Source: an uncultured Pseudobdellovibrionaceae bacterium (lineage in GTDB: Bacteria > Bdellovibrionota > Bdellovibrionia > Bdellovibrionales > JAGQZY01). Taken from it: DNA of 64,000 bases. This document shows, one piece after another, positions 916 through 58,364 of this stretch. The first letter of the stretch is position 1. The number at the start of each line of letters is the position of its first letter. The translations under genes and the position numbers were made by a program. Below the pieces are notes generated by a model that saw nothing but the letters and a program-made list of their open reading frames with translations, searched no databases and was not told where the DNA came from. The stretch spans positions 5,496 through 69,495 of the forward strand of contig CAZOGU010000004.1 in assembly GCA_964579625.1 (NCBI GenBank), given 5' to 3'.

Positions 916-1004
916 GTAAAAAAGTTAGAAACTAGACTCTCGTCGTGATTCTCTTCGAGAAGAAGTTTGTTATGATATTCGTGAACATCATAGAAAGGAA
1001 GTCT

Positions 1005-2006: not shown

Positions 2007-2056
2007 ACAAAGGGCTGAGGCCAACCTCACCCCAAACTCTCAAAGCAAAGACTTCC

Positions 2057-2086
2057 AAAGCCTCCCACAAGGAGGCTTTTTTTATT
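2057..2086 (+). terminator. Rho-independent terminator after the 1005-2006 gene
   Basis: AAAGCCTCC-CACAA-GGAGGCTTT stem-loop followed by a T run. Confidence 0.6.
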
Positions 2087-2104
2087 AATACACAATCACG
2101 AAAT

Positions 2105-2306: not shown

Positions 2307-2321
2307 AAGATTTTCGTTGTA

Positions 2322-4061: not shown

Positions 4062-4097
4062 TTTGTCATCTTATGGAATATAGAATAAACACCAAAT

Positions 4098-5495: not shown

Positions 5496-5631
5496 TAAAA
5501 AGCAGTCGTATTTGCTTATTTATCGGGCGTTGTGTTTTTTCTTATAAAATTTATTAAAACAGTGTTGAATAGTCTCCATTCCTTACGTACAAGTGAGGTG
5601 TTTTAAAATCGAGCGCCGTGGGAGGGGAATT

Positions 5632-6447
5632 ATGTTCAAATGGATTTTGAGCCTTTTACTTGTTATTACTGTTGAAAAAACGTTCGCCGAAAAGGAAACC
5701 TACTACGGTTACCTAAAATCCTCACCGGCAACAAAAGAGAATCTTTTTACCGTTCTCAGCTCTTACCACCTCCCTAAAAACAGTGGCGATTTAATCCTCC
5801 CCTCCTGCTCAGAGTACGAATGTTTTACACACTCCCCTGTTTCCTACAAAAAAGCCCGCGAACTGATCTTTGGTTTTTTGTATCTCGAAGGATCAACACC
5901 GCAGACTTATTCCATCGATACTTATTACTGCAATAAAACCCTGACCAATAAAGATTTTTCCAAACAAAATCAATTAGCTCCCATGCAAATCCCAGACAAC
6001 AACATCGTGAACGTCGAGCACGCTTGGCCACAAAGCCATTTTACCAATCAATTTCCAAAAAGTTTTCAAAAAGCGGATCTCCACATCCTCTTCCCGACGA
6101 TGAGTTACATTAATTCCATTCGAGGCAACTTTCCTTTTGGTGAAGTTCTCACGGCCAAACTGGAGCCCTGTACACAAGCGACTTTAGGTATCAACTCGGC
6201 GGGCGAGCAGGTGTTCGAGCCAGATGACATCATTAAAGGCGATATGGCTCGCGCCATATTTTACTTTTCGGTCCGCTACAAAGTGAAGGTCGATAAGAAT
6301 CAAGAGGCAGCGCTTCGTCGTTGGCATCAATTGGACAGCCCCGACGCTCGCGAAATCGAACTGAACGAGAAAATTTTTGATATTCAAAAGAACCGAAATC
6401 CTTTTATTGATCATCCCGAGTTTGTGGATCACATCGCAGATTTTTAA
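5632..6447 (+). CDS. Secreted endonuclease I family DNase
   Basis: The ATG at 5632 follows GGAGGGG. Signal peptide, then NVEHAWPQSHF, ADLHILFPT, NSIRGNFPFGE and NRNPFIDHPEF motifs typical of the EndA/Vvn/Dns family. Confidence 0.85.
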   Translation: MFKWILSLLLVITVEKTFAEKETYYGYLKSSPATKENLFTVLSSYHLPKNSGDLILPSCSEYECFTHSPVSYKKARELIFGFLYLEGSTPQTYSIDTYYCNKTLTNKDFSKQNQLAPMQIPDNNIVNVEHAWPQSHFTNQFPKSFQKADLHILFPTMSYINSIRGNFPFGEVLTAKLEPCTQATLGINSAGEQVFEPDDIIKGDMARAIFYFSVRYKVKVDKNQEAALRRWHQLDSPDAREIELNEKIFDIQKNRNPFIDHPEFVDHIADF

Positions 6448-6453
6448 AAAAGA

Positions 6454-6478
6454 AAAGGTCGGAAGTGATCCGACCTTT
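6454..6478. terminator. Bidirectional stem-loop terminator between convergent genes
   Basis: AAAGGTCGGA-AGTGA-TCCGACCTTT, flanked by an A run upstream and a short T stretch downstream. Confidence 0.6.
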
Positions 6479-6505
6479 CTGATGAAGAGATTTTTAACTT
6501 AAAAA

Positions 6506-7477
6506 CTATTCAAAACAACCAGCGCCCAAGAAAACCTTCTCGCCGTTGTAGATGGTTGAATACCAAGCTTTGTCATGAATCTTAACATGCACTTTGCGAC
6601 CATGTTTATAATTTCCAATCACTTTTGAGTCTGATGATGGAAACGTGCGCATACTACAAGTCGGCGAGGTGATTTTGGCAAATTTGCCAGAATGCATGTT
6701 CGCCACATTGCGTGTTCTTTCCATAGCAACTTGCTTACGTTCCTTTTTCTCTTCGTAAGCTTTGTCTACTTCGAGTTCCACTTCGATCTCATCGAGCTTT
6801 TTAGCAATCTTTTTTAATGAGTCGCGATGGTCTTGAACAATGCGAAGGTATTCTTTTCCTTCGCCGCCATTCTTTTCCATCGATTTTTTTGCTTTTTCAC
6901 GAACATACTTTAGTTCTTGCTCAGCACGAGTTAAGTCTTTTAAAGCCGACTTTTCTGTGCGCTTCATCTCTGCAAGCTTCGCTTCTTCTTTTTGCATGCT
7001 TTTTTCGACGTAGTCTCTTTCCGTCAAAGCTTCCTTCTTAAGATCAGCATAGCGTTGAGCTTCTTTTTTTACTTTTTCGTATTCAGCTTGCGACTTTTCG
7101 ATATCCAAGCGTGTTTTATCGATCGCCTCTTTGGCTGTATCGATATCTTTCTTGGCTCTTTCGATTTCGTCTTGTGCCTCAAGGATCTTCTTTTCGTTGA
7201 GTGCAATTCGCTCACGGGCGCGATCTTCTTCGCGGCGGGCTCTCTTTAATTCACCACCGGCTTTTTCTTTCATCACCGATGCTTCCTTTTTTTCTTTTTC
7301 CATTCGCTTCGCGGTTTCGACCTGTTCGGCTTTGGCCGCCTCGGAGTCCGCGATGGCTTCTTCGACTTCCATCATTTCACTCTGAAGCTCAGTTGGATCG
7401 TCGGCAAGTGCCGTGCTCTGCAAGCAGAACGCCGACAGCGCCAATATCATTGATAGTTTCTTTGTTGTAGTCATCAT
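6506..7477 (-). CDS. Secreted Lys/Glu-rich coiled-coil protein with a C-terminal SH3b-like domain
   Basis: Signal peptide (LSAFCLQSTALADD), about 230 aa of heptad-like KE-rich sequence, and a C-terminal SH3-like segment (GRKVHVKIHDKAWYSTIYNGEKVF). Confidence 0.6.
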   Translation of the reverse strand: MMTTTKKLSMILALSAFCLQSTALADDPTELQSEMMEVEEAIADSEAAKAEQVETAKRMEKEKKEASVMKEKAGGELKRARREEDRARERIALNEKKILEAQDEIERAKKDIDTAKEAIDKTRLDIEKSQAEYEKVKKEAQRYADLKKEALTERDYVEKSMQKEEAKLAEMKRTEKSALKDLTRAEQELKYVREKAKKSMEKNGGEGKEYLRIVQDHRDSLKKIAKKLDEIEVELEVDKAYEEKKERKQVAMERTRNVANMHSGKFAKITSPTCSMRTFPSSDSKVIGNYKHGRKVHVKIHDKAWYSTIYNGEKVFLGAGCFE

Positions 7478-7631
7478 ATGAACCTCTCCTTCATCATCTT
7501 TCTATTTCTGAAAGACTCTTCGGAGGTCCTGATGAAAATTTAAATACTTAGGTCTTAGGACCTTGCAGAACAAGATAAAAATGGATTTGTTTTGATTTGA
7601 GATCTCAAATTGAGATCATGTGTTATTAATT

Positions 7632-9179
7632 TTACAGTTTCTTTATTTTCTGACTAAGTTTGCTATGTTTAGCTCCATATCCAAAATAGATCACAAAGCC
7701 GATCAAAAGCCAGACCAAGAGCCTGTACCATGTATCATGAGGCAGTCCCATCATCACCCAAAGGCAAGACACTGCTCCAAGTGGACACACCAACCAATAG
7801 AGAGGGGTTTTAAACGGACGAGGGATTTCGGGATTGGTATGACGAAGGATAAAGACACCGACACAGACGAGGACGAAGGCGAGCAATGTTCCGATGGATG
7901 TCAGTTCTCCCACAAGGCTCATCGGCATGATTCCTCCACAGAGGGCCACAAATACGCCGGTCACGGCCGTTGCAATATGTGGGGTTGAAAAACGTGGATG
8001 AACGCGATCAAACCATGGAAGAAGGCCATCTTTGCCGATGGAGTAAAAAACTCGAGTTTGACCAATCATCATCACTAAGATGACAGAAGACAATCCACAG
8101 AGAGCGCCAAACTTTACAAAGAAGGATAAAAGTTTTTGCAAATACGGGTCCCATTGTCTTAAAGCAACGATACGATCCACACCCACAGCAACAGGATCAG
8201 AAACTCCCAATTCTTTATAAGACACAACACCCGTCATGGTCAGCGACATCAATATATAGATAGTCGTGCAAATAACGAGGGATCCTAAAATGCCGATAGG
8301 GAGATCCCGCTGCGGATTTTTTGACTCTTGCCCCATGGTAGAAATCGAATCAAATCCAATATAAGAAAAAAACACCACACCCGCTCCGGTCAAAACTCCA
8401 CTCAAGCCAAAGCTGTAAAACTCTTCTCCGTGACGAGTACTTAACCCATAAGGTGGAATCAACTTCATCAGGCCGCTAGCGTCTGGATTGACAATCCAAT
8501 TTTGGCTATCAATCACACCCCAGCCGACAATAATAAAAACAAGAATAATTAAAACCTTCACCATGACTATTATATTATTGATAAAGGCACTTTCTTTAAT
8601 CCCACGATAGAGAATGTACGAAACAAGAAGTGCAATAAAAGAGGCCGGAAGATTCCAGTACCCATAAGCCATAGAACCGTCAGAAAGCATCACTTGCTCC
8701 CACGGGCCTTTAGTGAAAAGCATAAATCCATCGGCAAAATGAATTCCCAATGTTTTAGTTAACAGAGACACCATGTAACCTGACCACGACGCCGAAACGG
8801 TGATGGCACCAAATGCATACTCAAGAACCAAATCCCAACCGATAATCCACGCCACCAGTTCGCCCATGGTTGCATAGGAATAAGCGTAGGCAGAACCTGA
8901 CACCGGAACCATCGACGCCATTTCGGAATAGCAAAGTCCTGCAAGAGCACATAAAATTCCGCCAATTATAAAACTATAAACAATTCCAGGGCCCGCATAA
9001 TTGGCAGCGGCTGTTCCTGTGAGAGAAAAAATTCCAGCACCGATGATGGCGCCAATCCCAAGCATGGTTAAGTTGAAGGCACCAAGATGACGCTTGAGTG
9101 TGTGCGTCCCTTCGCCAATATTTTTATCAGATGCTTCTGCAACCAAATAGGCGATCGTTTTTTTTGTGAAAAGCCCCAA
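7632..9179 (-). CDS. APC-family amino acid permease
   Basis: FNLTMLGIGAIIGAGIF signature and roughly 12-14 TM segments. TTG start. Confidence 0.85.
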   Translation of the reverse strand: MGLFTKKTIAYLVAEASDKNIGEGTHTLKRHLGAFNLTMLGIGAIIGAGIFSLTGTAAANYAGPGIVYSFIIGGILCALAGLCYSEMASMVPVSGSAYAYSYATMGELVAWIIGWDLVLEYAFGAITVSASWSGYMVSLLTKTLGIHFADGFMLFTKGPWEQVMLSDGSMAYGYWNLPASFIALLVSYILYRGIKESAFINNIIVMVKVLIILVFIIVGWGVIDSQNWIVNPDASGLMKLIPPYGLSTRHGEEFYSFGLSGVLTGAGVVFFSYIGFDSISTMGQESKNPQRDLPIGILGSLVICTTIYILMSLTMTGVVSYKELGVSDPVAVGVDRIVALRQWDPYLQKLLSFFVKFGALCGLSSVILVMMIGQTRVFYSIGKDGLLPWFDRVHPRFSTPHIATAVTGVFVALCGGIMPMSLVGELTSIGTLLAFVLVCVGVFILRHTNPEIPRPFKTPLYWLVCPLGAVSCLWVMMGLPHDTWYRLLVWLLIGFVIYFGYGAKHSKLSQKIKKL

Positions 9180-42311: not shown

Positions 42312-42869
42312 ATGAGTGATTTTTTCTCCCCGACGCCTATATCGGATTTATTCATTTACAAGCCCAAAGTCTTTAAGGACCAGAGAGGTTCCTTTTTTGA
42401 GAGCTATAACGCCTCCCACTTCGAAGCCATGGGCATTTCCTCGCGTTTTGTGCAGGACAATCGCTCCGTCTCGCAAAAAGGCACGCTTCGTGGGCTTCAT
42501 ATGCAGGTTGGTGACTTTGCACAGGCGAAGCTGGTGAGTGTTCTGCAAGGTCACGTCTATGACGTGGCGGTGGATCTTCGCCCCTCCTCCCCCACCTTTA
42601 AAAAATGGTACGGAATTCACCTGAAGGCCGAAGATCCAGTTTCTCTTTACATTCCTCGCGGGTTCGCGCACGGGTTTTTGGTGCTCAGTGAGACCGCTGA
42701 ATTTTTTTACAAAGTCGACAATTTTTACAACAAAACCAGCGAACGAGGCATTGCCTACAACGATTCTGAGCTCAACATCGCATGGCCGCTCGCCGCTGAA
42801 CAATTGATTCTTTCGGACAAAGACAAAGCTTTGGGCTCCCTTCAGAACTGGGTCAAGGAGTTCACATGA
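42312..42869 (+). CDS. rfbC: dTDP-4-dehydrorhamnose 3,5-epimerase
   Basis: FKDQRGSFFESY, RGLHMQ and PRGFAHGF motifs. Start placed at the ATG at 42312. Confidence 0.9.
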   Translation: MSDFFSPTPISDLFIYKPKVFKDQRGSFFESYNASHFEAMGISSRFVQDNRSVSQKGTLRGLHMQVGDFAQAKLVSVLQGHVYDVAVDLRPSSPTFKKWYGIHLKAEDPVSLYIPRGFAHGFLVLSETAEFFYKVDNFYNKTSERGIAYNDSELNIAWPLAAEQLILSDKDKALGSLQNWVKEFT

Positions 42870-43870
42870 AGCCCACCCTGATTGTCACCGGCGCGGCAGG
42901 TTTTATTGGTAGCAACTTTATAAAAAAAATTGCTGCACAAAATTCGGATCGTTATGATTTTGCCATCGTAGACGCCCTCACCTACGCCGGTCGTATTCAA
43001 ACCATCAGTGAGGACTTAGAAAAAAACAAAAGCCTTTCGTTTCATAAAATTGATATTCACAACAGCCACGAGGTTTCCACACTTTTTCAAAATCTATCGC
43101 CTGTCGGAGTGATTCATTTTGCAGCCGAATCTCACGTGGATCGCTCGATCACCAATCCTAATATTTTTGTCGAAACAAATGTGATTGGGACTTTGAATCT
43201 TCTCAACAGCTCCTTAAAACTCGCGGAAAAAAATCCGTCATTTAAATTTGTCCACGTAAGCACCGACGAAGTCTACGGCTCTTTGCAAGAGGGCGATCCC
43301 GCTTTTAGTGAGCAAACTCCATTGGCTGCTAACAGCCCGTATAGCGCAAGTAAAGCGAGCTCGGATCTTCTGGTTCGTGCTTATGTTGAAACTTTTAAAC
43401 TCAATGCCTGCATCACTCGCTGTTCGAACAATTACGGTCCCTATCAGTTTCCAGAAAAGCTGATTCCGCTGATGACGATGAGTGCCCTCAACGATAAAAA
43501 GTTACCCGTCTACGGAAACGGCCGCAATATCCGCGACTGGATTTACGTGGACGATCACAATCGTGGCGTCTGGCAAGTTTTTGAAAAAGGCCGCGCCGGC
43601 GAAATTTATAACTTTGGTGGCAACGCCGAAAAACGAAATATCGACATTGTAAAAACGATTCTTACTCTTCTTAAAAAGCCAGAGAACTTGATTGAATTTG
43701 TCGAAGATCGAAAAGGCCACGACTGGCGCTATGCGATGGACTTTTCCAAAGCCACCAAAGAGTTCGGCTGGAAGCCCCAGGTGTCTTTTGAGCAGGGTCT
43801 CGCCCAAACGGTGGAGTGGTATCAAAACCGTTTGGACTGGATTCAGATGGTCAAAGAAACAGCGGTTTGA
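42866..43870 (+). CDS. rfbB: dTDP-glucose 4,6-dehydratase
   Basis: TGAAGFIGSNF, STDEVYG and YSASKASSD (YxxxK). 4-nt overlap with rfbC. Confidence 0.93.
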   Translation: MKPTLIVTGAAGFIGSNFIKKIAAQNSDRYDFAIVDALTYAGRIQTISEDLEKNKSLSFHKIDIHNSHEVSTLFQNLSPVGVIHFAAESHVDRSITNPNIFVETNVIGTLNLLNSSLKLAEKNPSFKFVHVSTDEVYGSLQEGDPAFSEQTPLAANSPYSASKASSDLLVRAYVETFKLNACITRCSNNYGPYQFPEKLIPLMTMSALNDKKLPVYGNGRNIRDWIYVDDHNRGVWQVFEKGRAGEIYNFGGNAEKRNIDIVKTILTLLKKPENLIEFVEDRKGHDWRYAMDFSKATKEFGWKPQVSFEQGLAQTVEWYQNRLDWIQMVKETAV

Positions 43871-46473: not shown

Positions 46474-47691
46474 TTGGCGGCGCTGATTCCCATTTTTTTT
46501 GTGTACTTCTGTAGCCTTCATTTATCTGTGGCTGCCATGGAAACATTGGGGCCATTGGTCTTTCTTTCGAGCCTTGGTATCGCTATTTATAAAAAATCAG
46601 TTATCTGGCCCTCACGATGGACTTGTATTGCCATGGTTGGCCTTTTAACAACAGCCCTTCTGAGCTTTGTGATCAACAGCCTTCCTTCGGAAGATTTTTT
46701 AGATTACATAGGCGAATTTCGTTGGATGTTGGGGTTTCTAGGATTCTTACAATTTTTTAATCTTTTTTATAAAAAAATTAATTTCCAAAAACTCTTCTTT
46801 GCAGCTCAGTGTGTCCTCATCGTCGCTGGGTTCTATTGCTTTTATCAATTTTTTACAGCACACGATCCCTTCCGTCCCAATGTTGTTTTTCACCAGATTT
46901 ACGCTGGTTCACCATACTGGCGCCCCAATTCATTTTTTGGTTTGCCGACAACCTACGCCTATGCGAGCGCTATGTTCTTTTGCATGAGTCTGGCATTTTG
47001 GTTGCGCGAAAAACAACCCACGGGTTGGCAAAATCGCATCACTCGTTTTTACTTTTTTATCTCTGCATTTAATATTTTTCTTACCTTCACACGAGCGGCA
47101 TGGGTGGCTTTTTTTGCGAGCACGCTCAATGTTCTTTATTTTGTAAATCGAAAATTTTGTATGCGTGTGGCTTTGGCATTTTTTCTGTTTGTCGCCGCTT
47201 TTTATACGAGCATGCCTTCTTTTCAAAACCGAATTCAGTCCATGTACGACCCGACTTATATTGCTAACCACAACCGCATCTACTTGTGGAAGGCGAATCT
47301 GAATATTTTTAAAGAAAACCCGTGGTTTGGAATTGGTTTTGACGAGAACCGTAAACAGATTGAAAAATATCTCGCGCCTTTTAATAAACCGGAAGTGATG
47401 CGCAATCATCCGCACAGCACCTATATTAACTTCTTAGCCGGTTTAGGTCTTTTTGGGTTTGTCTTTTTTATGATTTTTGTTGGAACAAACCTCAAACACA
47501 CCATCGCTGGTATACGCTTTACGCAAAACTCAACACATAAAACATTTTATATTGGAGCCTTGGGGCTTCAGATGGTTTTATTGATTGGCGGGCTCACCGA
47601 GTGCAATTTTGAAGACATCGAACTCACCCATCAGTACATTCTTTTTACAGCCCTGGTCGAATACCTAAGACAGCAAGATTTTCCCTCTTAG
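46474..47691 (+). CDS. O-antigen ligase family (Wzy_C domain) membrane protein
   Basis: About 11 TM segments. LTFTRAAWVAF and NHPHSTYINFLAGLGLFG motifs. Ligase rather than polymerase is inferred from the ABC-type export genes. Confidence 0.7.
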   Translation: MAALIPIFFVYFCSLHLSVAAMETLGPLVFLSSLGIAIYKKSVIWPSRWTCIAMVGLLTTALLSFVINSLPSEDFLDYIGEFRWMLGFLGFLQFFNLFYKKINFQKLFFAAQCVLIVAGFYCFYQFFTAHDPFRPNVVFHQIYAGSPYWRPNSFFGLPTTYAYASAMFFCMSLAFWLREKQPTGWQNRITRFYFFISAFNIFLTFTRAAWVAFFASTLNVLYFVNRKFCMRVALAFFLFVAAFYTSMPSFQNRIQSMYDPTYIANHNRIYLWKANLNIFKENPWFGIGFDENRKQIEKYLAPFNKPEVMRNHPHSTYINFLAGLGLFGFVFFMIFVGTNLKHTIAGIRFTQNSTHKTFYIGALGLQMVLLIGGLTECNFEDIELTHQYILFTALVEYLRQQDFPS

Positions 47692-47708
47692 ACGGGCGTC
47701 TAGATCAC

Positions 47709-48416
47709 TTAAACTTCGATGGTGCCGATACCAAATCCACACTGCTTGGGATTATCGATATACTCTTTGCTCGACGGGTGAAGCTTTTTTAAGCGCGACC
47801 AAAAATAATACACCTGGTTCGTTGGAAAGGGCTGATTTTCAACGATATCATGAAACGCCACTAACCCTCCAGGTCTTACAAACTCAATGTAATCGTTAAA
47901 ATCTTGTTCCACACCTTTTTCTGTATGATCCCCGTCAATAAAAAGAAAATCCACTTTTTGATTATTGAGCGCTTTGCGCACAAGTTCTTTAAATTCTGGA
48001 CGATGGGAATCTCCCTGCAAGTTGATCACTTTGCATTTTGATCCTGGTGGCGGAAGTTTTTTGTAAAATTCGGTTTTATAGCCAGGGCCATTGAGATCAC
48101 ATGAAACCACCAAATCGGATGCCAACTGTGTCCACGCAAACAGTGTCCCCCCGCGAGCTGTTCCGATCTCTAAAACAACTTTGGGTTTCAGCTCGCTCAC
48201 CCGCTCCACCAGCGATACAAATTCACTGCGAATTTGAATAGAATCCAGACGGTAATACCCCGAGGACGGGAACTTCATGCCGTAATCGACGATTTCTGCA
48301 ATCGAGCGTTTTTTTGCATGAAATTTTTTAAGCTCTCTATGGGCAAAAAATTTGCAAAACGGCAGTCGCAGTTTTCGTATCATCGATCTTTCAATGGTTT
48401 CCATGAGAGTCTCCAA
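47709..48416 (-). CDS. Class I SAM-dependent methyltransferase (TylF/CmcI-like)
   Basis: VLEIGTARGGT, FLFIDGDHT and GGLVAFHD. Confidence 0.75.
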   Translation of the reverse strand: METLMETIERSMIRKLRLPFCKFFAHRELKKFHAKKRSIAEIVDYGMKFPSSGYYRLDSIQIRSEFVSLVERVSELKPKVVLEIGTARGGTLFAWTQLASDLVVSCDLNGPGYKTEFYKKLPPPGSKCKVINLQGDSHRPEFKELVRKALNNQKVDFLFIDGDHTEKGVEQDFNDYIEFVRPGGLVAFHDIVENQPFPTNQVYYFWSRLKKLHPSSKEYIDNPKQCGFGIGTIEV

Positions 48417-49497
48417 TCAATTCTTCTAATTTTGCAAAATGGTCCTGTGCACGAAAGAGTTGTAGATACTTTTTGAGGCCAGCGTCCACAAATTGTTTTC
48501 GCAACTGTTCATTTTTCATAAGCGTACTGATTTTTTGCGCAAACCCTTCAATATCGTTGGGCGAAAAAGTAAAGCCCGAGACGCCGTCTTCGATGATTTC
48601 AGGAACACCGCCAGTATTGCTGCCAATCACGGCCACACCAGCGGCCATGGCCTCAATCAGAACAATGCCAAACGTTTCCTGATCGCTTGGCAAGGCAACA
48701 ACATCAAAGCACCCCATGAGTTCGGATGGATTTTTTTGAAAACCACACCAGTACACGCAGTCTTGTAATTTTTCGCTGAGGATATAGGCTTTGATTTGTT
48801 CTTCATAACCGTCTCCTCCCATAAAATGACCAAAAAAGTAAATCTGAAATTCCAAACCTTGTTTTTTAAGAGCGGACAAAGCCTCAAGAAGTCGCCACTG
48901 ACCCTTGCTTTTTTCGATTCGCGAAAACATAGCCACTTTAAAACGAGTGGAAGGAAATTGTGTCAAAAAGGCTTTTTGCCTCTCCGAATTTAGTTGGGGC
49001 TGGGGTACACCGTAATACAAACGTGAAACCTTTTCCGGAGCGAGTGGCACCCTCTCCAAAACGTCTCTTTTGAGTTTTTCCGTCACACAGATCATGCGAT
49101 CCACCTGTGAATAAACCCAACGATGATACAAGTCCTTTTTTGATCCAGGCATTTCCATTTGACGTGTATGAATAAAAATCATCTTTTGACGACTCAGTTG
49201 TTTTGCCAATGCAACAATCGGTAAATCTTTGGCAAAATGCACATGAACGATATCAATCTGTTTTTTTTCAAAAAGCCTGGCGAGCTGAAAAGCGGCGCGC
49301 AGCGAACCACCCCACCCTTTTTTGCTGATAAGATGAGGCTCAATTTGGCTTTTAGTCAGAAGCTCCTGAAGTCGGCTCTGTGGCACCGTGACAGCTGTCA
49401 GTTTGTGAGGGGTTGTTTTAAAATACTCACAGCACCAATAAAAGTAGAGCTCAAGCCCCCCGAGGGAGTCATTTAAACACACTTCGGCGATGTTCAT
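48391..49497 (-). CDS. GT4/group 1 glycosyltransferase
   Basis: ETFGIVLIEAMAAGVAVIGSNTGGVPEII. The ATG at 49497 forms an ATGA overlap with the upstream stop. Confidence 0.85.
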   Translation of the reverse strand: MNIAEVCLNDSLGGLELYFYWCCEYFKTTPHKLTAVTVPQSRLQELLTKSQIEPHLISKKGWGGSLRAAFQLARLFEKKQIDIVHVHFAKDLPIVALAKQLSRQKMIFIHTRQMEMPGSKKDLYHRWVYSQVDRMICVTEKLKRDVLERVPLAPEKVSRLYYGVPQPQLNSERQKAFLTQFPSTRFKVAMFSRIEKSKGQWRLLEALSALKKQGLEFQIYFFGHFMGGDGYEEQIKAYILSEKLQDCVYWCGFQKNPSELMGCFDVVALPSDQETFGIVLIEAMAAGVAVIGSNTGGVPEIIEDGVSGFTFSPNDIEGFAQKISTLMKNEQLRKQFVDAGLKKYLQLFRAQDHFAKLEELIGDSHGNH

Positions 49498-50225
49498 ATC
49501 CGAGCCAGTTTCCAAACTGAGCGAAATGTCTTTTGAAGATTCTTCTTTAAAAAAGACGTGGGTAGCCAACGACAAATGGAATTTACAATTTTAAGCTTGA
49601 ACGGCATCGATTTTTCGTACTCATTTTTCCACGCTTGCATTTTATCACCTGTGGAAAACATATCAACGCCAGCAAACTTCTCTTCAAACGGAAAAGAGTC
49701 TTTCCAGAAAAAGCTCATGATGGATTCTGTATGGATTAAATAATATCCTCTTTGCTCCGTATAAGAGAGAGGGGTTTTTTGCGTGAAGTACAATCCGCCA
49801 TTTTGCGCCTCCACAAACCAACGGTGATGCTGAAAGCCGGTAAAATCAAATCCCTGAACGCCGTAAAGCATTTCTGCGGCACGGGTGGGGGTTTCGATAT
49901 AACCTGCCTTAGACACTCTCACCATTTCGCTACACACCCAAAGAGGGTCACGAATGTCTTCTAAAACATGGGAACAAATCACAAAATCAAATTGTTTATC
50001 TTTAAATGGCCATGGTTTTCGACCACAAATATCAAACTCAATCCATGTGTCTTTATTAAATCGCTCGGGCTGACCAAGCTGGCCAGTTTTACCGCGAGTT
50101 TCGTAAGAGAGAGCGTCCATAACATAGTCCGCTCTTTCAAAAGGGTGGGCCCAACCACCGATGTCTAAAACAACATCTGTGTCTTTAATGGCCTTGAGAA
50201 CTTTGGGAAGATTGTCTTTGTGCAT
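49494..50225 (-). CDS. Class I SAM-dependent methyltransferase
   Basis: VLDIGGW.. and FDFVICSHVLEDIRDP. Confidence 0.7.
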   Translation of the reverse strand: MHKDNLPKVLKAIKDTDVVLDIGGWAHPFERADYVMDALSYETRGKTGQLGQPERFNKDTWIEFDICGRKPWPFKDKQFDFVICSHVLEDIRDPLWVCSEMVRVSKAGYIETPTRAAEMLYGVQGFDFTGFQHHRWFVEAQNGGLYFTQKTPLSYTEQRGYYLIHTESIMSFFWKDSFPFEEKFAGVDMFSTGDKMQAWKNEYEKSMPFKLKIVNSICRWLPTSFLKKNLQKTFRSVWKLARI

Positions 50226-50235
50226 ACGAGGATCT

Positions 50236-50948
50236 CTACTTTGCTGTCTCTGGATTTTTTAAGATAAATATATATTCACCAGAAAATGTCTCAATCCAGC
50301 GCCGCGCCGGTTTAAAATAGACCATCCACTTGCGACCCGAACTGGGTTTTATGGGATAACATATTTTTTCAAACTCAAAACCCTCGCGATAGGCGAGTTC
50401 ATTCATGCAAGTGGGTGTGATCCAACAGGTGTGTTCAAAATTGGGAGTGAGTGTACCTTTGCGAAAAACAGAAAAGAAATGCCCCTTAAAAAACGGATTG
50501 GGCGTGGAGATAATCACCCGCCCACCAGGCTTGAGATGTCTTTTTACGAACTGTAAAAAACCCCCAGCATTGGTGATATGTTCAATCACATCTCCAGCGT
50601 GGATCAAATCGAATTTTTCCTGAAAATCAGCGTCCCCTGTCGCATCTGCAAAACGGATGTCGTAACCTAACTTTTGTGCGATCGGGATCAGTTTTTGATT
50701 CACATCAATTCCGACAACTTTTTTGCGACTTGCAGAATTTTTTTAAAAAACCAGTTGGCGTTTCGCATATACTCTTCGGTGTGTTCGCAAGAACCGATAT
50801 CCATCACTGTTTTCCCTGAACATTCACGGAGAATAAAATCATCCCGATGAATCACTTCAAAGTGACGAATGGATAAAAGATATTGTCTATAGAGCTTCGC
50901 CACCTCTGCATTGCAGGGGTCTTCTGTCATTTTGCGCCAATCAAACAT
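50236..50948 (-). pseudogene. SAM-dependent methyltransferase split into two ORFs (50700-50948 and 50236-50703) by a -1 frame change at an A6 tract
   Basis: The upstream ORF carries motif I (VMDIGS). The downstream frame reads KKVVGIDVN..DLIHAGDVIEHI..LKPGGRVIISTPNP. The two join cleanly by a -1 shift at GCA_AAA_AAG. Confidence 0.6.
50718..50724 (-). other. In-phase A_AAA_AAG slippery heptamer at the junction of the split methyltransferase
   Basis: Minus-strand zero-frame codons are GCA AAA AAG, the same heptamer as the E. coli dnaX -1 frameshift site. The zero frame stops 6 codons later. Confidence 0.4.
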
Positions 50949-50998
50949 AGCCTTAACTACTGGGGATTGCTCAGCATGTCAATGCGTCTGAGGCGGCG

Positions 50999-51943
50999 TT
51001 AAATCAATAGATCTTGACTCAGGGGGCGGGGCGTCCAACCCGTGATTTTTTGTAATTTTTCAATGTTGGCGCAGGAATGGAGGATGTCGCCAGGTCTTGG
51101 TGGTGCGTAGTTTTTGGTGACGTAACTCTGGCTTTTTTTAAGATACAAATCGGCCAATTGATCAATGGTAATGGTTTGACCAGATCCCACGTTGAGCACA
51201 TCGATATTTTGCAATTTTGGGTCTCCGTCCACAAGCCCACGCCCTAGTTGCAAGCACACTTTCACAACATCATCCACAAAAACAAAATCACGTGTTGCTT
51301 TGCCGTCACCAAAAATTTGGATGGGCTGATTTGTTTCGGCCGCGTGAGCATAGAGTGTCATCACCCCACTGTAAGGCGAATGACGGTCTTGCCCCTCACC
51401 GTAGATATTAAAAAAACGAAGTCCTAAAAAAGGCCGGGATTCAAGCTGTAAAAAATTTCTGAGAACATCTTCGCAAAATCTCTTTTGAGCGGCATACAAA
51501 CTGAGTGGGGCCCCCAACATCAGATCTTCTTTGAGCTTTGGATGCTGATCTCCAAGGACACCGTAAACGGCACTACTGCTTGCAAAAACAAGAGGGATTT
51601 TTTGCGGATGATTGCGCAGTGCTGTTGCAATTTTTATTGTCGATCGAACATTTGTTTCGAAGGAGCCGACTGGATCTTTTTGGCAAAGCGGAACACTCAC
51701 AATCGCTGCGAGATGATAAATCAGATCAAATTTAAAAAGTTCGTTTTGGTAGTTCTCAATTTCGCGAACATCACGGTGCAAATACTCAACTCCACTCACC
51801 GCTTTAAGAGGGGCACGGACATCCCATGACGTCACCTGGTGTCCTTCACTGAGAGCACGTCGAGCCAAATGAGTCCCAATAAAACCGGCGCCGCCAGTGA
51901 TAAGAATTTTTAGTTTTTGCGAGGTCGTGTTTTGTGTGCTCAT
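50999..51943 (-). CDS. NAD-dependent epimerase/dehydratase (extended SDR)
   Basis: ILITGGAGFIGTHL and YAAQK (YxxxK). Substrate unknown. Confidence 0.85.
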   Translation of the reverse strand: MSTQNTTSQKLKILITGGAGFIGTHLARRALSEGHQVTSWDVRAPLKAVSGVEYLHRDVREIENYQNELFKFDLIYHLAAIVSVPLCQKDPVGSFETNVRSTIKIATALRNHPQKIPLVFASSSAVYGVLGDQHPKLKEDLMLGAPLSLYAAQKRFCEDVLRNFLQLESRPFLGLRFFNIYGEGQDRHSPYSGVMTLYAHAAETNQPIQIFGDGKATRDFVFVDDVVKVCLQLGRGLVDGDPKLQNIDVLNVGSGQTITIDQLADLYLKKSQSYVTKNYAPPRPGDILHSCANIEKLQKITGWTPRPLSQDLLI

Positions 51944-53013
51944 GCCAATAAATTGTTATACTGTTTTAAAACGTTTGCACCAGAAAAGTACTTTTGGGCA
52001 AGCTTATAATTCTGGTTTACTTTCTTCGCGTACTCTTCCGCCGTCCAGCTCAATGTCTCTTCGACACAGCGACTTAAATGCTCAATATCACCGTCTTTGG
52101 CTTGCAGAAAATCAAACCCCATTTTTAAAAATTCGGGAAAAACCGTATTGTCGTAAGTGATTGGCAAGGTTTTGGCTAAAAAAGCTTCTATCAAAGTATT
52201 GGGAAGCCCTTCGCCCTTGGAAGGAAAAAGGAGGTATTGAGCTTCGCAGAGTTTTTGAAAAACCTGATTGGTAAAACCCACAAAGTAAACCCGCTCTTTT
52301 AATTCGGGATTGTTTTGGACCGATGTGTGCAGTCTTTGCGACAAGGCTTCATCCTCCACGCCTCCCAAAAAAGACAAAGTGGCTGGCCTCTTTTTCTGCG
52401 CAAGATGGGCTAGCACTTTGAGGCAGTCTTCGTGTCCCTTACCCTCGGCGATACGCCCCACATGAATCAATTGGGCAGGAGAGGACAGTGTTTTTTCGCC
52501 AGTAAAGGTCCAATCGCAAGGAAGATAGACTACTTTTGTATTTTGTTCCGTTGCACCGGGAATGATTTGTATAACGTTTCTTTTGATATGTTCACTCACT
52601 GGAATATGAAATTTTACGGATCGATAAATTAGCGCATGAAGTGGATCTTTTTTGCTATGAGATTTTGTCGTCCCATGAAAGTTAAGGATGCGAACCTTCA
52701 GTCCTAAACAAGCTAGCGCCAAAGATTTAAGCTCCGAGGCTCCAAAAAAAATCAAATTCTTTATCTTCAGACTTTTTATAATTTGACGAACATCACGAAT
52801 GCAGCGAAGACTGAAGTTCCCAGTAAAATCCACCACCTCGAACCCGATTCCATCGGCCACTAAACTTTTTTCGCATGTCTCGATATAACTTCCGCGACGA
52901 CACACAAGTGTCACGGAATGATCTTGAGCCAATAGACGAGCGACACCCATGGCATTGAGTTCCATTCCACCTTTGTTGTTAGAAAAACAGGCGACAACAA
53001 CAGTGGTCTTCAC
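51940..53013 (-). CDS. GT4/group 1 glycosyltransferase
   Basis: PSKGEGLPNTLIEAF. Probable GTG start at 53013 in a GTGA overlap with the upstream stop. ATGA overlap with the downstream gene. Confidence 0.8.
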   Translation of the reverse strand: MKTTVVVACFSNNKGGMELNAMGVARLLAQDHSVTLVCRRGSYIETCEKSLVADGIGFEVVDFTGNFSLRCIRDVRQIIKSLKIKNLIFFGASELKSLALACLGLKVRILNFHGTTKSHSKKDPLHALIYRSVKFHIPVSEHIKRNVIQIIPGATEQNTKVVYLPCDWTFTGEKTLSSPAQLIHVGRIAEGKGHEDCLKVLAHLAQKKRPATLSFLGGVEDEALSQRLHTSVQNNPELKERVYFVGFTNQVFQKLCEAQYLLFPSKGEGLPNTLIEAFLAKTLPITYDNTVFPEFLKMGFDFLQAKDGDIEHLSRCVEETLSWTAEEYAKKVNQNYKLAQKYFSGANVLKQYNNLLA

Positions 53014-53900
53014 AATTCCACCACAACAACTTTTGGAATAAGATCCAGACCACAATCCGTTTTGACAATTTTTTCTCGTGCGTGACGTGCAAAGATCTCT
53101 GGGAGTGGACCACCCACTTTACGAATGGGATGCCACAGATGATACTGAACCGCCACATTACAGACTGATTTGATTCGTACGCCTCGATTGCGAAGTCGAA
53201 TGTCCAAATCGGAATCTTCGGCCCCGCAGGACTCTTTAAAACTCATATCAAAACCATTGAGACTTTCGAGGTCCGACTTAAAAAAAGAGACGTTACAACC
53301 CACAATTCCGCGGGACTTTCGATTGATCCACTTTCGTAAAAAGGCACTTTGAAAGTAGAGACCTCTTGCCCACTGATTGTTTTTTTGAAAGATCATAAAG
53401 AAGAACATCCACCAGTAGTTTTTTTGCAAAAATCCGTTTTTGATCTTGGCGACATTGAGCAAGTTAGAAAGCCACAGAGTCAATTCGGCTCTTCTCCCGG
53501 AGAGTGCTGCGCCAGCTTCACGGTTTGTAAAGTGTTCTCTCACAAACTCTGGATGCAGAATGCAGTCTTGATCCACAGTGATGATATAGGGACTTCGCGC
53601 ATTTATGATGGCTTTGTTAAGCATTTCCACTTTTCGCCATCCATCGTCCTTGTGCCAAAGATGCTGCATTCTTAAAGATGTTGCCTTCATGTAGGCGCGG
53701 ATGTGATCGACCACTTCTGGGCGCGAACCGTCGTCGCAAATGAGCACCTCAAAATTTTTAAAAGACTGCATTTCAAGGCTTGCCATCTGCAGATCAAAAA
53801 AACGACTGTGATTATAAAAACCAACAACCACGCTGACTTCGGGAGGTGTTAGAGATCGATCTTTTTGATTCGAATGAATCGTGTAGTCTAAAATATCCAT
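53010..53900 (-). CDS. GT2 glycosyltransferase
   Basis: VSVVVGFYN...EVLICDDGS and VDQDC motifs. Start placed at the ATG at 53900; the ORF is open to 53963. Confidence 0.8.
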   Translation of the reverse strand: MDILDYTIHSNQKDRSLTPPEVSVVVGFYNHSRFFDLQMASLEMQSFKNFEVLICDDGSRPEVVDHIRAYMKATSLRMQHLWHKDDGWRKVEMLNKAIINARSPYIITVDQDCILHPEFVREHFTNREAGAALSGRRAELTLWLSNLLNVAKIKNGFLQKNYWWMFFFMIFQKNNQWARGLYFQSAFLRKWINRKSRGIVGCNVSFFKSDLESLNGFDMSFKESCGAEDSDLDIRLRNRGVRIKSVCNVAVQYHLWHPIRKVGGPLPEIFARHAREKIVKTDCGLDLIPKVVVVEL

Positions 53901-53981
53901 GAAATCCAATTTTACGAGTAAAAACAACAGCCTGCAATGATCTATTGACCGAAGATTAATCATATGACATTCACATAGGCA

Positions 53982-54971
53982 ATGAAAATATTGTACGTGA
54001 ATTCCCCAGAGTGGGATTACATGCAGGATCTCCTTTACTCAGGCTTTGTCAAAGTCTGTGGGGCGGAAAATGTCTATGATTTTCCAATGCATAAGCGCTA
54101 TCACTGGATTGATAAAAAATACCCCAAAAATTTAGGTCTCAACCGTGGTTGGCATTCTTTACAAAGACTTTTTTCACCTTTCCCCAAAGACATTGATGCT
54201 GTTGTGGTGGGTTCCAGCAAGCACCATGCGCTGAAGAACTATATGTCTCTTCTTGCAAAGATTCCAAAATCAGTACCAGTTGTTCTTATTGATGGTGGTG
54301 ATCAACCCGCAATTGGGGGCGATCTTATTTACTATAAATCCCCTTACGTTTTAGAAAACGTTGAGAAGGTTCGTCCTTTTGATTTTATTTTTAAACGAGA
54401 ATTTTTACCTGAGTATCTAAAAAATCCACGAATAATTCCTCTTCCATTTTGCATGAACATGGATCGCATTCCAAAACCTTTGCCTTCACAAAAAAAATAC
54501 GATGTCAGCTTTTGGGCGGTGGAGAGCGATCCGATCCGCACCAAAGCACTCACTCTTTTGGAAAATCAATTTGATTGCCGGCAAAACGGTACCACTCGTA
54601 ATCAAAAGTTTCATTTGTACAAACGCAAAGGTCGCTTTTATCTTGAAGAACTTGCTCGTTGCAAAATTGTTCTTCACTTTCGAGGTGGTGGCTGGGATAC
54701 CATGCGCTATTGGGAAGTTCCTGCTGTGGGAAGTTTAATGATCACACCAAACCCCGGAATTGTCATTCCCAATGACTTTCAAGATGGACGTCATGTCGTT
54801 CATTGCAAAGACGATCTCTCTGACTTGATCGACAAATGTGATTATTATCTTAAGAACGATCAACTCAGAGAAACGATAGCCCAGGCGGGCCATCTGCATC
54901 TTCTAACTTATCATCAAGATATTCATCGCGCTCAAGTCGTTATCGATACTCTTACGAAATTTAACTTGTAA
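53982..54971 (+). CDS. CgeB/DUF3880-like putative glycosyltransferase
   Basis: The C-terminal MRYWEVPAVGSLMI...L.D.I..YL....R..IA..G pattern resembles the Glyco_trans_1_2 family. Confidence 0.5.
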   Translation: MKILYVNSPEWDYMQDLLYSGFVKVCGAENVYDFPMHKRYHWIDKKYPKNLGLNRGWHSLQRLFSPFPKDIDAVVVGSSKHHALKNYMSLLAKIPKSVPVVLIDGGDQPAIGGDLIYYKSPYVLENVEKVRPFDFIFKREFLPEYLKNPRIIPLPFCMNMDRIPKPLPSQKKYDVSFWAVESDPIRTKALTLLENQFDCRQNGTTRNQKFHLYKRKGRFYLEELARCKIVLHFRGGGWDTMRYWEVPAVGSLMITPNPGIVIPNDFQDGRHVVHCKDDLSDLIDKCDYYLKNDQLRETIAQAGHLHLLTYHQDIHRAQVVIDTLTKFNL

Positions 54972-56562
54972 TGATCGGTATTTTGGTATCCAGGCTGTTC
55001 ATCATTTCGATGGGATACAAATAGCGACCATTGGAGTCGGGAGGTGGCGCCGTCTCAGTCATGCCGTATCCTGGGCGACCATTGCGGCGATAGTCTGATG
55101 GTACGTGACCCATGGCTTGTACGATGTTGGCTGCCAATCTTCCCAAGGGTACTCCCGCACGCAAGAAAGGATTTTGCGGATCATAAATGTTTAAAACCGC
55201 GCGATTTTCTAAATTTCTTAAGTCAACAAAATTTCCAGTTTGAAAATAACCATTTCCAGAACCTGCAATCACACACCCCATGCTATTTAAGTCGTGAGTC
55301 GTTGGACCCGCTTCATGCAAGTGCATCACCACTCCACGATCCAACAGCGTTTGACCGTTTCCTGCGTCAATTGCATCAAGCTTTCTTACAACCGCACCAA
55401 AGAGATTCTCCGATTGCCAACGAAGGTTGCGGTTGTGAGTCAATTGAATAGTGCGACTTCTATTTACTGAGTGGGCTATTTCTTCGTGATAATCGCCTGT
55501 ATGAAGAAAGTGATCATTATGACCAGAAAGATTCGCGAGTCGAGTTGCTCCACAACTAAAAGAAACTGCCAATAAATCTGTCAACATATCCCAAGCGCGA
55601 TTATAGTCCGACTGACTTGAGTAATTTGAAGCATCAAATCCATTGTACCCAGAAACCGGCGGTGACACTACATCACTGCATGTGTTAACAACAACTCTAT
55701 ATTTCCTTTCGGTCTCAAACATAAACTCAGCATGTTGAGCGAGTCGCTGCTTATCAACGGAAGAAATGCGACGAGCAAAGCCAGTGGTTCCATTAACAAG
55801 TCGATTAAAATCTTCGAGAACACGATCTAATAAAAATGAACGCCTAGCTCGCTGCGCGAGAAGTTGACTATCATTTGTTCCCTGATATTTCAAAAAAAGT
55901 TCGTTATAAATTTGCTGAATCGAATCGCCAGTATTTCGATATTTGATTCCACCATTGATCCAAGAGTATTCAAGATGGCTCCGACTCAGGACGGGAGTGG
56001 AGAGGGCCGTTCGGTCCGTGTAAAACTTCGGTGAATTCGCCAGAAATTGATCGATTGTGGGCCATGATGGGGACTCCGGAAATATAGACTGAGCCCCGCC
56101 GGTAATACTGTGAGAATGGGCAGAAGCCGCCATATATCCATCGATTCCGACAAGCATATTTATTTTAGAAAGATATGGATTTAAATAAGAGCCAAGAATA
56201 AACGAAAGTCGTTGCTGACCACCGTCGACGTTCCCTCCATCATGCCCTACACTTGATGTCAATAAATTCGATAATCTTGCTGATCGAATTGTATGGGCAA
56301 TCCCGTTCTGGCCGCCGGCAGGAATGAGTATACTTGGCGTAAACACACTCGATGTCGGATTATCAATAAAGGGACCAGGAAACCAATCTTTATGAAGACC
56401 TGGTCCACCGTGATCTGTACCGATCAACACGAGATACTGTTGTGAGGCTAACGCTTGTGCATGTGCTTCTGAGGTTAATAGAGACGGCAAAACCGGAAGC
56501 GCCATTAAGCTGCCCCCAACACCTTGTAAAAAATGACGTCGGGATTGTTTCGAATACTTCAT
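54961..56562 (-). CDS. Tat-exported DUF1552-family protein
   Basis: SRRHFLQGVGGSLMALPVLPS leader typical of DUF1552. His-rich clusters (SAHSHS, HNDHFLHTGDYHEE). Confidence 0.7.
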   Translation of the reverse strand: MKYSKQSRRHFLQGVGGSLMALPVLPSLLTSEAHAQALASQQYLVLIGTDHGGPGLHKDWFPGPFIDNPTSSVFTPSILIPAGGQNGIAHTIRSARLSNLLTSSVGHDGGNVDGGQQRLSFILGSYLNPYLSKINMLVGIDGYMAASAHSHSITGGAQSIFPESPSWPTIDQFLANSPKFYTDRTALSTPVLSRSHLEYSWINGGIKYRNTGDSIQQIYNELFLKYQGTNDSQLLAQRARRSFLLDRVLEDFNRLVNGTTGFARRISSVDKQRLAQHAEFMFETERKYRVVVNTCSDVVSPPVSGYNGFDASNYSSQSDYNRAWDMLTDLLAVSFSCGATRLANLSGHNDHFLHTGDYHEEIAHSVNRSRTIQLTHNRNLRWQSENLFGAVVRKLDAIDAGNGQTLLDRGVVMHLHEAGPTTHDLNSMGCVIAGSGNGYFQTGNFVDLRNLENRAVLNIYDPQNPFLRAGVPLGRLAANIVQAMGHVPSDYRRNGRPGYGMTETAPPPDSNGRYLYPIEMMNSLDTKIPIITS

Positions 56563-58364
56563 CTTGCTCTCCTCTTTGTAAACTCAGGCTGTGTTGTGAT
56601 TGCTTTTACTGCACTCAATATACTTCCATCTGTTCCATTTACGCTTTCAAAGACGGACTTAACCGCGCAGGGGTTTTCTTCAACTTCCAAGTTGGCCTTC
56701 TGTGCAAAATTCCAGAGCTTAGATGAAAAACAAGCCAACGCATTTGGGTTTTGAGCCAATTTATTACTTAGGTCTACGGCCCCTTTCACTTCACTGTTTA
56801 CAAAGGGATCGAGACTCATAGAAATTGTGGATTGAACAGGTTTTGTTGTTAATACTTGTCCTTGTTGAGCCGCTCCTTCCGGATGAAAAACTCGCTCCGT
56901 TGTGCGAAATTGTCCAAAAGAGTCAAAATTATCAAAAGCAAAACCGATGGGGTTAATGATATTTTTATGACATCCAATGCAGGTTGATCCCTGTGTTTCG
57001 GTGATTGCCCGAACTCTTTCTTGATCACTCATCGTATCTAGGATGACCACATTTTCCGGAGTCGCGTTATCAGCAGGGACAGTGAGGTCTTGGCACATAA
57101 AGTCTCGATAGACATGCACACCCCTCATGATTGGGCGAGTTGATCCAGAGCCTGTGTATAGAAATTGAGCTCTGGTTAAAATCCCTGCACGTTGAGACGC
57201 TGGAGCACGAATTAAATTTTCGGATTCAGATCGACCATTCCAAATAGTAGACCCATAAATACTCGCCATGAATTGATTTCGTGGAAAGACCAATGGACTT
57301 GTCATCAGTTTGGCGTAATTGGCTCTTTCGACCCATATCAGATGTTCAAAATAATCGTAGACCTCATTGATAAGGCTCTCTCTCAAAACAGTTGGATCGG
57401 GGTTGTTAAGCTCACTCAATCGAGTTTGAACCTCACGAATGTCAGTGCGCAGGTTGGCCGTGTTATCGAGACGCAACCATTGGTTGGCAAAAAATCTGGA
57501 GAGCCGGCTTCGTGCTTTTGGATGCTCCAAGAGCCTATCCACTTGGGAGGAAAAAGTTGATGGATTTAGCAAACTTCCGTCTGCAGCAACACGAAAGAGT
57601 TCTTCATCCGGCATACTTTGCAAAATAAAGTAGGACAATTTGTTGGCCCGTTCGTAAGCATCAAGTTCGATCAATCCAGTGCTTGTTGCCGATTCTCCAA
57701 ACTGATTATGGTAATAAAAAAACGGTGAGGAGATCATGGAGACGATAACGTTACGATAGCTATCGGCATGTCCACGCATAACTTGAAGGTAGTAATTACG
57801 TGAATCACTATCGACAACGCGGCGAAGAGCTCGTAAACCAAAGTTATCGATAAAACTTAACTGACAAGCTTCTGTTGTCCGATTTGAGGAGCAAGCCCCA
57901 AGCATGCGATTGACTGTCGTGGATTGAGATGTGATGTAATCAGCGACACCTTCAGCAAGTAGGAAATGCCTTTCTACATGCGTAGCTGTAACGTCGCCGT
58001 TGGCGAGATCCATACCAACATTCACTTTGTTTTTTGGTATGTTGTTAATTAAGGGGCGAATTCGCGACAAGAACTGAGATTGCTGTGTGCTATCTAGGTA
58101 AGGCTCAAATAGATCTACAAGAGTGTTTTCCAATTCGAATTGATTCAATGGCAGTAATTGATTCTCATTGGGGAGTCGAGGATCGCTGGGAGAGCAACTC
58201 AGTGAAAAAGCTGTCACCGAAGCAAGCTGACTAGAACTATTCGAAGCATGGTAAGGCGCGCAGTTTTGATAAAAAGTAACAACAATGATCATGAGTACTG
58301 AATAGAAAAATTTGATCCCCATAACCACTACCCCCTGATCGTCCAAAAAAGAATTTACATTCAT
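56559..58364 (-). CDS. DUF1592/DUF1588/DUF1585-type protein with a CxxCH motif
   Basis: CIGCHKNIINPIGFAFDNFDSFGQFR. N-terminal hydrophobic anchor. ATGA overlap with the DUF1552 gene. Confidence 0.65.
   Translation of the reverse strand: MNVNSFLDDQGVVVMGIKFFYSVLMIIVVTFYQNCAPYHASNSSSQLASVTAFSLSCSPSDPRLPNENQLLPLNQFELENTLVDLFEPYLDSTQQSQFLSRIRPLINNIPKNKVNVGMDLANGDVTATHVERHFLLAEGVADYITSQSTTVNRMLGACSSNRTTEACQLSFIDNFGLRALRRVVDSDSRNYYLQVMRGHADSYRNVIVSMISSPFFYYHNQFGESATSTGLIELDAYERANKLSYFILQSMPDEELFRVAADGSLLNPSTFSSQVDRLLEHPKARSRLSRFFANQWLRLDNTANLRTDIREVQTRLSELNNPDPTVLRESLINEVYDYFEHLIWVERANYAKLMTSPLVFPRNQFMASIYGSTIWNGRSESENLIRAPASQRAGILTRAQFLYTGSGSTRPIMRGVHVYRDFMCQDLTVPADNATPENVVILDTMSDQERVRAITETQGSTCIGCHKNIINPIGFAFDNFDSFGQFRTTERVFHPEGAAQQGQVLTTKPVQSTISMSLDPFVNSEVKGAVDLSNKLAQNPNALACFSSKLWNFAQKANLEVEENPCAVKSVFESVNGTDGSILSAVKAITTQPEFTKRRAR

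Follow-up and report, generated by a model that had tools for sequence, protein, structure and literature searches.

Among glycan genes, the closest analogue that carries an A_AAA_AAG heptamer is the frameshift cassette of H. pylori futC. Several other described systems lend themselves to comparison with the gene treated here, a methyltransferase gene of an uncultured Pseudobdellovibrionaceae bacterium whose reading frame is split at such a heptamer.

Homopolymer frameshift pseudogenes, the 'indel mutation' class of GeneTack (PMC3711429), have in common with the split methyltransferase the deletion of a single base from a poly-A tract within a conserved domain, the intact state of the relatives and the confinement of the break to one lineage. 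Unlike the usual pseudogene of this class, the methyltransferase gene shows no decay (dN/dS 0.009), and the heptamer left behind could partly suppress the frameshift by itself.

E. coli dnaX contains the identical heptamer in the identical phase, made up of tandem lysine codons (PMC3711429, PMC5389563). Frameshifting in dnaX requires the heptamer together with an internal Shine-Dalgarno sequence and a downstream hairpin (PMC3711429), and in vitro its efficiency of 84% drops to 20% when the hairpin is missing and to 50% when the Shine-Dalgarno sequence is missing (PMC5389563). The heptamer as such occurs in 68 E. coli genes (PMC9307594). dnaX has both stimulators and a conserved frameshift, whereas both the stimulators and the conservation are missing in the split methyltransferase. 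Moreover, the shift in dnaX truncates the protein and thereby provides a second functional product, but in the methyltransferase the shift would be needed for the only functional product.

A model for possible leakiness is the rescue at C-AAA-AAA in pDEST17, where a 1-nt deletion near an A-run is compensated by an unprogrammed -1 slip, giving an active enzyme of the correct size (PMC1851650). In these E. coli constructs 1-nt deletions after C-AAA-AAA were rescued to 25-60% under overexpression (PMC1851650), and the case differs from the one considered here by its host, E. coli, by the strong expression and by the proximity of the site to the start codon. Spontaneous frameshifting in vivo generally occurs at frequencies of 1e-4 to 1e-5 (PMC9307594).

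Finally, phase-variable glycan genes of Neisseria, Campylobacter and Haemophilus (PMC2651432) likewise carry a homopolymer in the 5' part of the coding sequence, with ON and OFF lengths found among relatives, and Mycoplasma p78 is an example of phase variation through poly-A (PMC3711429). A survey of Haemophilus repeats set a minimum of 9 units for mononucleotides and found A/T tracts of 8-10 to be inconsistent with phase variation (PMC2651432). Compared with the known phase-variable tracts, the tract of the methyltransferase gene comprises only 6 or 7 units, is unexceptional in its genome and is stable across diverged lineages. Set against all of these systems, the event is of a known and ordinary kind, namely a frameshift allele that is specific to one strain and affects an accessory methyltransferase of polysaccharides.

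The split gene and its restored product

The window, by which we mean the whole analysed stretch of 64,000 nucleotides, is 95.6% coding and contains 61 ORFs. Its UvrC (2322-4061, minus strand) shares 75-77% identity with proteins from metagenome-assembled Bdellovibrionaceae and Bdellovibrionales bacteria and 59% with UvrC of Pseudobdellovibrio exovorus, as would fit an organism close to the Bdellovibrionales. The features discussed are collected in Table 1.

Table 1. Positions in the window of the split methyltransferase gene, its sequence elements and genes of the surrounding cluster.
Feature	Position	Strand	Remarks
Whole frameshifted methyltransferase gene	50236..50948	-	237 aa when one A is restored
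Upstream ORF, 82 aa	50700..50948	-	N-terminal helices, beta1 and glycine-rich SAM loop VMDIGSCEH
Downstream ORF, 155 aa as listed from GTG 50703	50236..50703	-	beta2 (VVGIDV) through C-terminus
A_AAA_AAG heptamer, in phase	50718..50724	-	A6 at 50719-50724, G at 50718; site of the 1-nt deletion
T6A7 tract (TGG TTT TTT AAA AAA ATT)	50738..50750	-	13 nt upstream of the broken tract; internal control
rmlB	42866-43870		
Wzy_C ligase/polymerase-like gene	46474-47691		
CmcI-like rhamnosyl O-methyltransferase	47709-48416		
Second methyltransferase	49494-50225		
Epimerase/dehydratase	50999-51943	-	Pfam match; gene call on L001
GT1 glycosyltransferase	51940-53013	-	Pfam match; gene call on L001

How is the frame broken? 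On the minus strand the region reads ...TGG TTT TTT AAA AAA ATT CTG CAA GTC GCA AAA AAG TTG TCG GAA TTG ATG TGA, and the upstream ORF (50948..50700), which carries motif I (VMDIGSCEH) at residues 47-55 of its 82 residues, continues past the heptamer for five out-of-frame codons (LSELM) before it ends at the TGA. The heptamer starts at gene offset 224 (224 mod 3 = 2) and lies in the X_XXY_YYZ phase. In the -1 frame the sequence continues as GTT GTC GGA ATT GAT GTG AAT... (VVGIDVN...). This frame is open already from the heptamer on, upstream of the GTG at 50703 from which the downstream ORF was listed, translates past the heptamer as VVGIDVNQKLIPIAQ... and meets its first stop at 50236. Joining the two frames at the heptamer yields a protein of 237 aa with the junction ...LQVAKKVVGIDVN.... 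The first-pass annotation of this DNA had given the point of the split, the phase of the heptamer and the fused sequence, all of which are borne out by the minus-strand reading; it had also proposed one contiguous enzyme of about 235 aa, of which the contiguity holds and the length has to be corrected to 237 aa.

The joined protein scores 54 bits with the Pfam profile Methyltransf_23 (PF13489), whose cutoff is 27, and the match extends over residues 44-193 and thus across the junction. The profiles Methyltransf_11, _31, _12 and _25 likewise exceed their cutoffs with the joined protein, and their matches cross the junction as well. Of the 24 homologues found, those with 35-70% identity are encoded by single ORFs and have lengths of 224-260 aa. 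Nineteen intact ones (35-69% identity) were aligned with the joined sequence, giving 20 sequences in total; they are colinear with it and have no insertion or deletion at the junction. Invariant residues stand on either side of the break: G52 and H56 belong to the N-terminal piece, and the C-terminal piece has G80 and D82, which are invariant in all 20 sequences, as well as D102, G119 and D120. Modelled with AlphaFold2, the joined sequence confidently forms a single domain with the seven-strand Rossmann-like fold (pLDDT 92.8, pTM 0.90), strand beta1 being at residues 47-51 and beta2 at residues 77-82; in this model beta2 starts with the residue at which the frame is broken, within the SAM-binding core. 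As is characteristic of class I enzymes, a glycine-rich motif I follows beta1 and an acidic residue, D82, ends beta2. The top matches in a Foldseek search are class I methyltransferases as well, among them 3l8d (E = 2.4e-12), MitM, ToxA and RebM. Profile, motifs, predicted fold and structural matches agree with the class I SAM methyltransferase identity that had been read from the sequence at first. Regarding the substrate, sequence and fold searches of the PDB returned only generic class I methyltransferases without substrate assignment, and a search of NCBIfam returned only UbiG-like matches, all of them below threshold.

The ancestral A7 tract and the age of the deletion

The A6 tract is found in three identical contigs. 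In addition to the window these are L001 (SRR13608705), a 59.7-kb contig identical to the window over 12,468 of 12,468 nt including the A6, and L002 (SRR13608728), which is also 100% identical to the window with the A6 included. As all A6 contigs are 100% identical, they stand for one population that was sampled in two runs, possibly of one project, and in which A6 and A7 may be mixed.

The 90%-identity protein cluster that holds both window fragments contains a further member, P0026, with a length of 237 aa. It differs from the joined window protein by two residues (S44T, I146L), and its junction reads ...LQVAKKVVGIDVN.... P0026 is encoded on contigs of two unrelated runs, L015 (SRR27422810) and L016 (DRR783874). 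Over the length of the gene their DNA matches the window at about 93% identity, and the sequence at the junction is GCA AAA AAA GTT GTT GGA, an A7 tract. A7 occurs again in L040, which comes from a JGI metagenome, is about 91% identical and represents a third lineage; its junction is GCA AAA AAA GTC GTT GGA, and its frame is open for at least 120 codons, which are all that the contig contains. At the level of contigs, A7 is fixed in three lineages that are about 8-10% diverged. In alignments of about 8.6 kb at about 90% DNA identity between the window and L015, L016, L040 and L041 the gap in the A-tract is the sole uncompensated indel. The T6A7 tract upstream of it is identical in the window, L015, L016 and L040; tracts that long are evidently inherited stably and read correctly.

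Because the sister lineages carry an intact in-frame A7, the window has a 1-nt deletion; A7 is ancestral and the lineage of the window has dropped one A. Such a comparison of orthologues for A6 versus A7 had been proposed as a check in the first-pass annotation, and the closest relatives turn out to be intact single ORFs with A7. Its suggestion that the sequence has A6 instead of A7 is right as far as the ancestral state is concerned; the sequencing error that it had offered as the reason is not what the data point to, as A6 occurs in two runs and is probably real. The alternative of a real mutation, also listed there, is the one that the comparative data bear out, in the form of a 1-nt deletion in the A-tract.

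More distant orthologues (45-70% identity) are intact and do not have the heptamer. At 65-70% protein identity (L033-L039) all junctions are in frame and the heptamer is absent, the junction codons being GCT AAA AGA GCC in L033 and L035, GCT CGT AAA GTT in L036 and ACT CGA AAA GTT in L037-L039. Another 13 loci, taken from genomes and metagenomes and yet more distant, are likewise in frame at the junction, with unrelated codons and no heptamer. A scan of genome contigs with the family alignment found homologues of at most 43% identity and no same-species or close relatives; these homologues are intact at the junction except for a truncated remnant in L014. A scan of metagenome contigs with the intact allele had its best match at 49% identity and nothing closer.

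How old is the break? Between the window gene with the A restored and the gene of L015 there are 45 synonymous and 2 nonsynonymous changes, corresponding to a dS of 0.39 and a dN/dS of 0.009. Neighbouring genes have dN/dS values of 0.019-0.095, above that of the split gene. If the gene has evolved neutrally since the break, no more than about 4-6% of the branch leading to the window can be younger than the break (Poisson 95% bound). No further stops or indels were found in a search of the split gene for secondary lesions, and relaxed selection was not seen. A dN/dS of 0.009 points either to a very recent break or to a gene on which selection continues; the value shows recency only under the pseudogene reading, as a gene that is still selected would give the same value. 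Selection could persist through reversible switching or leaky decoding.

We consider it likely that the split gene results from a real, very recent deletion of a single A in the ancestral A7; the resulting allele of the polysaccharide methyltransferase would be null or leaky. Homopolymers offer many targets for such mutations, with 74 A7/T7 and 28 A8/T8 runs in the 61 kb of coding sequence. As in frameshift pseudogenes, the frame is broken inside a conserved domain and the orthologues are intact. In the proposed course of events GCA AAA AAA GTT would have become GCA AAA AAG TTG by loss of one A, presumably through replication slippage. Normal decoding would then stop five codons past the deletion and yield the 82-aa fragment, which has beta1 and the glycine loop and lacks beta2-beta7, so that the enzyme would probably be inactive or strongly reduced in activity. 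The event would have to be very recent, because neither half has decayed. An unprogrammed -1 tandem slip on A_AAA_AAG, followed by decoding of GTT..., would restore exactly the wild-type sequence ...VAKKVVGIDVN..., and for this reason the allele may be a leaky hypomorph and need not be a null. As a practical consequence, annotations should list the split gene as a pseudogene with a frameshift.

A more far-reaching possibility, which appears unlikely, is that the A6 allele is alive and that -1 slippage and/or switching between A6 and A7 provides a reduced and tunable dose of wild-type methyltransferase. If true, the sequence would show, in a predatory bacterium, the first step by which a homopolymer deletion in a surface-glycan gene turns into a recoding or phase-variable site.

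Other readings of the A6 tract

Could the tract be a switch? Slipped-strand phase variation would toggle methylation of the surface polysaccharide between A7 (ON) and A6 (OFF), and the window would represent an OFF population. The tract is suitably placed, as it occupies codons 75-77 out of 237 and thus the 5' third of a gene for surface-glycan modification in a variable locus. A6 and A7 are both found among close relatives, the dN/dS of 0.009 fits a gene under selection, and there are documented cases of phase variation that act through poly-A tracts or concern glycosyltransferase genes (PMC3711429, PMC2651432). However, with 6 or 7 units the tract is short and remains under the survey minimum of 9 units for mononucleotides (PMC2651432), and it is unexceptional in the window, whose coding sequence contains a further 74 tracts of A7/T7 and 30 of greater length. 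Moreover, A7 is unchanged over three lineages that are separated by a dS of about 0.4, the adjacent T6A7 is invariant, and the three A6 contigs show no length heterogeneity. Weighing these points, we find phase variation improbable.

A further reading takes the A6 for a consensus artefact, with an organism that really has A7 and a deposited sequence in which one A is missing. Indel errors classically fall into homopolymers, the frameshift is a singleton confined to one population, and singletons of the GeneTack set that were validated by BLASTp were mostly put down to sequencing errors (PMC3711429). However, a read or assembly error is unlikely because, apart from the deposited record, two runs that were each assembled on their own gave contigs with the same A6. 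Homopolymers are also frequent in the window, where the 61 kb of ORFs contain 35 A7, 39 T7, 16 A8, 12 T8, 1 A9 and 1 T9, altogether 104 A/T runs of at least 7 in coding sequence. An assembly prone to errors should have broken other genes too, yet a search of the window found no other obvious split pair; neither the T6A7 tract 13 nt away nor any of at least 100 other long A/T runs breaks another gene. In addition, sister lineages that were sequenced elsewhere resolve A7 at the same site. From these sequence comparisons A6 is probably real, and an artefact is very unlikely.

A third alternative is an evolved -1 frameshifting of the dnaX type on A_AAA_AAG, which would give an 82-aa product and the 237-aa enzyme in a set ratio. 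The heptamer is canonical and in the right phase, the -1 product is the conserved full-length enzyme, and neither half has decayed. Yet the frameshift is not conserved: the three closest lineages have an in-frame A7, and distant orthologues are in frame without the heptamer. The 82-aa product would comprise only half of a Rossmann fold, for which no role is plausible. Both stimulators are missing at the site as well. The 25 nt upstream (TTTTTAAAAAAATTCTGCAAGTCGC) contain no Shine-Dalgarno-like element (no GGAGG, AGGA or GAGG), and no stem-loop was found in the downstream 78 nt, whose minimum free energy of -12.6 kcal/mol compares with a mean of -14.8 for shuffled sequences (z = +0.79); a 181-nt context folds no better than its shuffles (z = +0.93). 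The lack of a convincing downstream stem-loop, already remarked upon when the sequence was first read, is thereby corroborated. Scans of the window for Rfam families and tRNAs gave zero matches.

What does the heptamer itself tell? It was pointed out at first that heptamer and phase are the same as in dnaX. The identity is correct; its weight as evidence is lost, since the heptamer is an automatic by-product of the deletion and has 11 other copies in the window. When one A is removed from the in-frame GCA AAA AAA G, the result is GCA AAA AAG, and the heptamer arises automatically. In-phase A_AAA_AAG is present in 11 ordinary, unbroken genes of the window versus 8.3 expected from lysine codon usage, which gives no sign of heptamer avoidance in intact window genes and makes the phase found at the split no more than a chance coincidence would explain; together with 23 in-phase A_AAA_AAA sites in unbroken genes the A_AAA_AAR sites add up to 34. 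Thus, the phase of the heptamer agrees with the dnaX class, yet it is unspecific, and three of four testable features of the class fail. The programmed -1 frameshift proposed in the first-pass annotation is therefore not supported: relatives are intact with A7, distant ones lack the heptamer, and stimulators are absent, which brings the dnaX-type reading close to refutation. Intact single-ORF orthologues had been named in that annotation itself as an outcome that would speak against it. The lesson is that an in-phase A_AAA_AAG at a split gene is no independent evidence for recoding, because an in-frame A7-G minus one base yields this heptamer automatically.

Scarcely credible, finally, is a two-piece enzyme in which polypeptides of 82 and 155 aa, translated in a GTGA-coupled manner, assemble into an active methyltransferase: the GTG at 50703 does overlap the TGA stop (GTGA) and a GGA lies 7-9 nt upstream of it, but a restart at this GTG would leave out VVGID including the invariant beta2 residues G80 and D82, the GTG is a synonymous valine codon, being GTG also in the intact L040 and GTC in L015 and L016, and there is no naturally split homologue among the homologues examined, so that the coupled two-subunit enzyme was rejected on account of the lost beta2 residues and of a GTG that is only a synonymous variant.

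The polysaccharide cluster and its neighbourhood

The split gene belongs to a cluster which, by its gene content, is a rhamnose-type O-antigen or surface-polysaccharide cluster. In addition to the genes of Table 1 the locus holds an RgpF-like gene, a GT4, a GT2 and another glycosyltransferase, so that there are at least five glycosyltransferases and two further methyltransferases. The methyltransferase forms, with the genes at 50999..53013, an accessory module of three genes in the order GT1-epimerase-methyltransferase. A related cluster, L042 (positions 1-8900 of a 27.8-kb contig from SRR28154525), shares with window positions 46474-53963 the backbone GT2 - MT243 - GT4 - CmcI-like MT - Wzy - GT2 and is without the trio of GT1, epimerase and the 237-aa methyltransferase (MT237). 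Because the L042 cluster lacks the trio, the split gene can be assigned to an accessory module. Its product is most likely a sugar O-methyltransferase, a role predicted from the context of the locus. In a mosaic, module-variable locus of O-antigen type, loss or attenuation of a methylation step would be a cheap way to alter the cell surface.

Synonymous divergence from L015 is very uneven in this region (50236-53013): the epimerase has a dS of 1.09, compared with 0.38 in GT1 and 0.33 in the next methyltransferase. Within the split methyltransferase it is 0.15 for codons 1-77 and 0.53 for codons 78-237. The unevenness suggests recombination mosaicism within the polysaccharide cluster.

Two observations concern relatives of the methyltransferase on other contigs. 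L014, from a metagenome-assembled genome of a Pseudobdellovibrionaceae bacterium (CAZLPZ010000002.1), contains at 5989-6270 an ORF of 93 aa that matches only residues 1-83 of the methyltransferase family and stops right after the beta2 motif (LGTDILILEQ*), with an ABC transporter gene coming after it. This ORF has the appearance of what an independent truncation would leave of a family member. The 67%-identical orthologue P0004 is carried by three contigs (L033, L034, L035). On one of them, L035 (JGI 3300066688, Ga0612017_0835), the neighbouring genes at 830-2121 are in fragments, Glyco_transf_9 in pieces of 155 and 189 aa and MBOAT in pieces of 91 and 345 aa, and on L033 and L034 the same neighbours are intact, with 328 aa for Glyco_transf_9 and 487 aa for MBOAT. 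This suggests other frameshifts or assembly errors in the L035 contig.

In the window the cluster is flanked at 54961-58364 on the minus strand by two adjacent genes, one for a PSD/PSCyt-domain protein of 601 aa and the other for a protein of the HXXSHH family with 533 aa. Within the cluster, the mechanically assigned TTG starts of the minus-strand ORFs at 48391-49575 (394 aa) and 51940-53055 (371 aa) make them overlap their upstream genes by 82 and 46 nt, respectively. The corresponding gene calls on L001 are 368 aa and 357 aa long, and the true starts are probably located further downstream.
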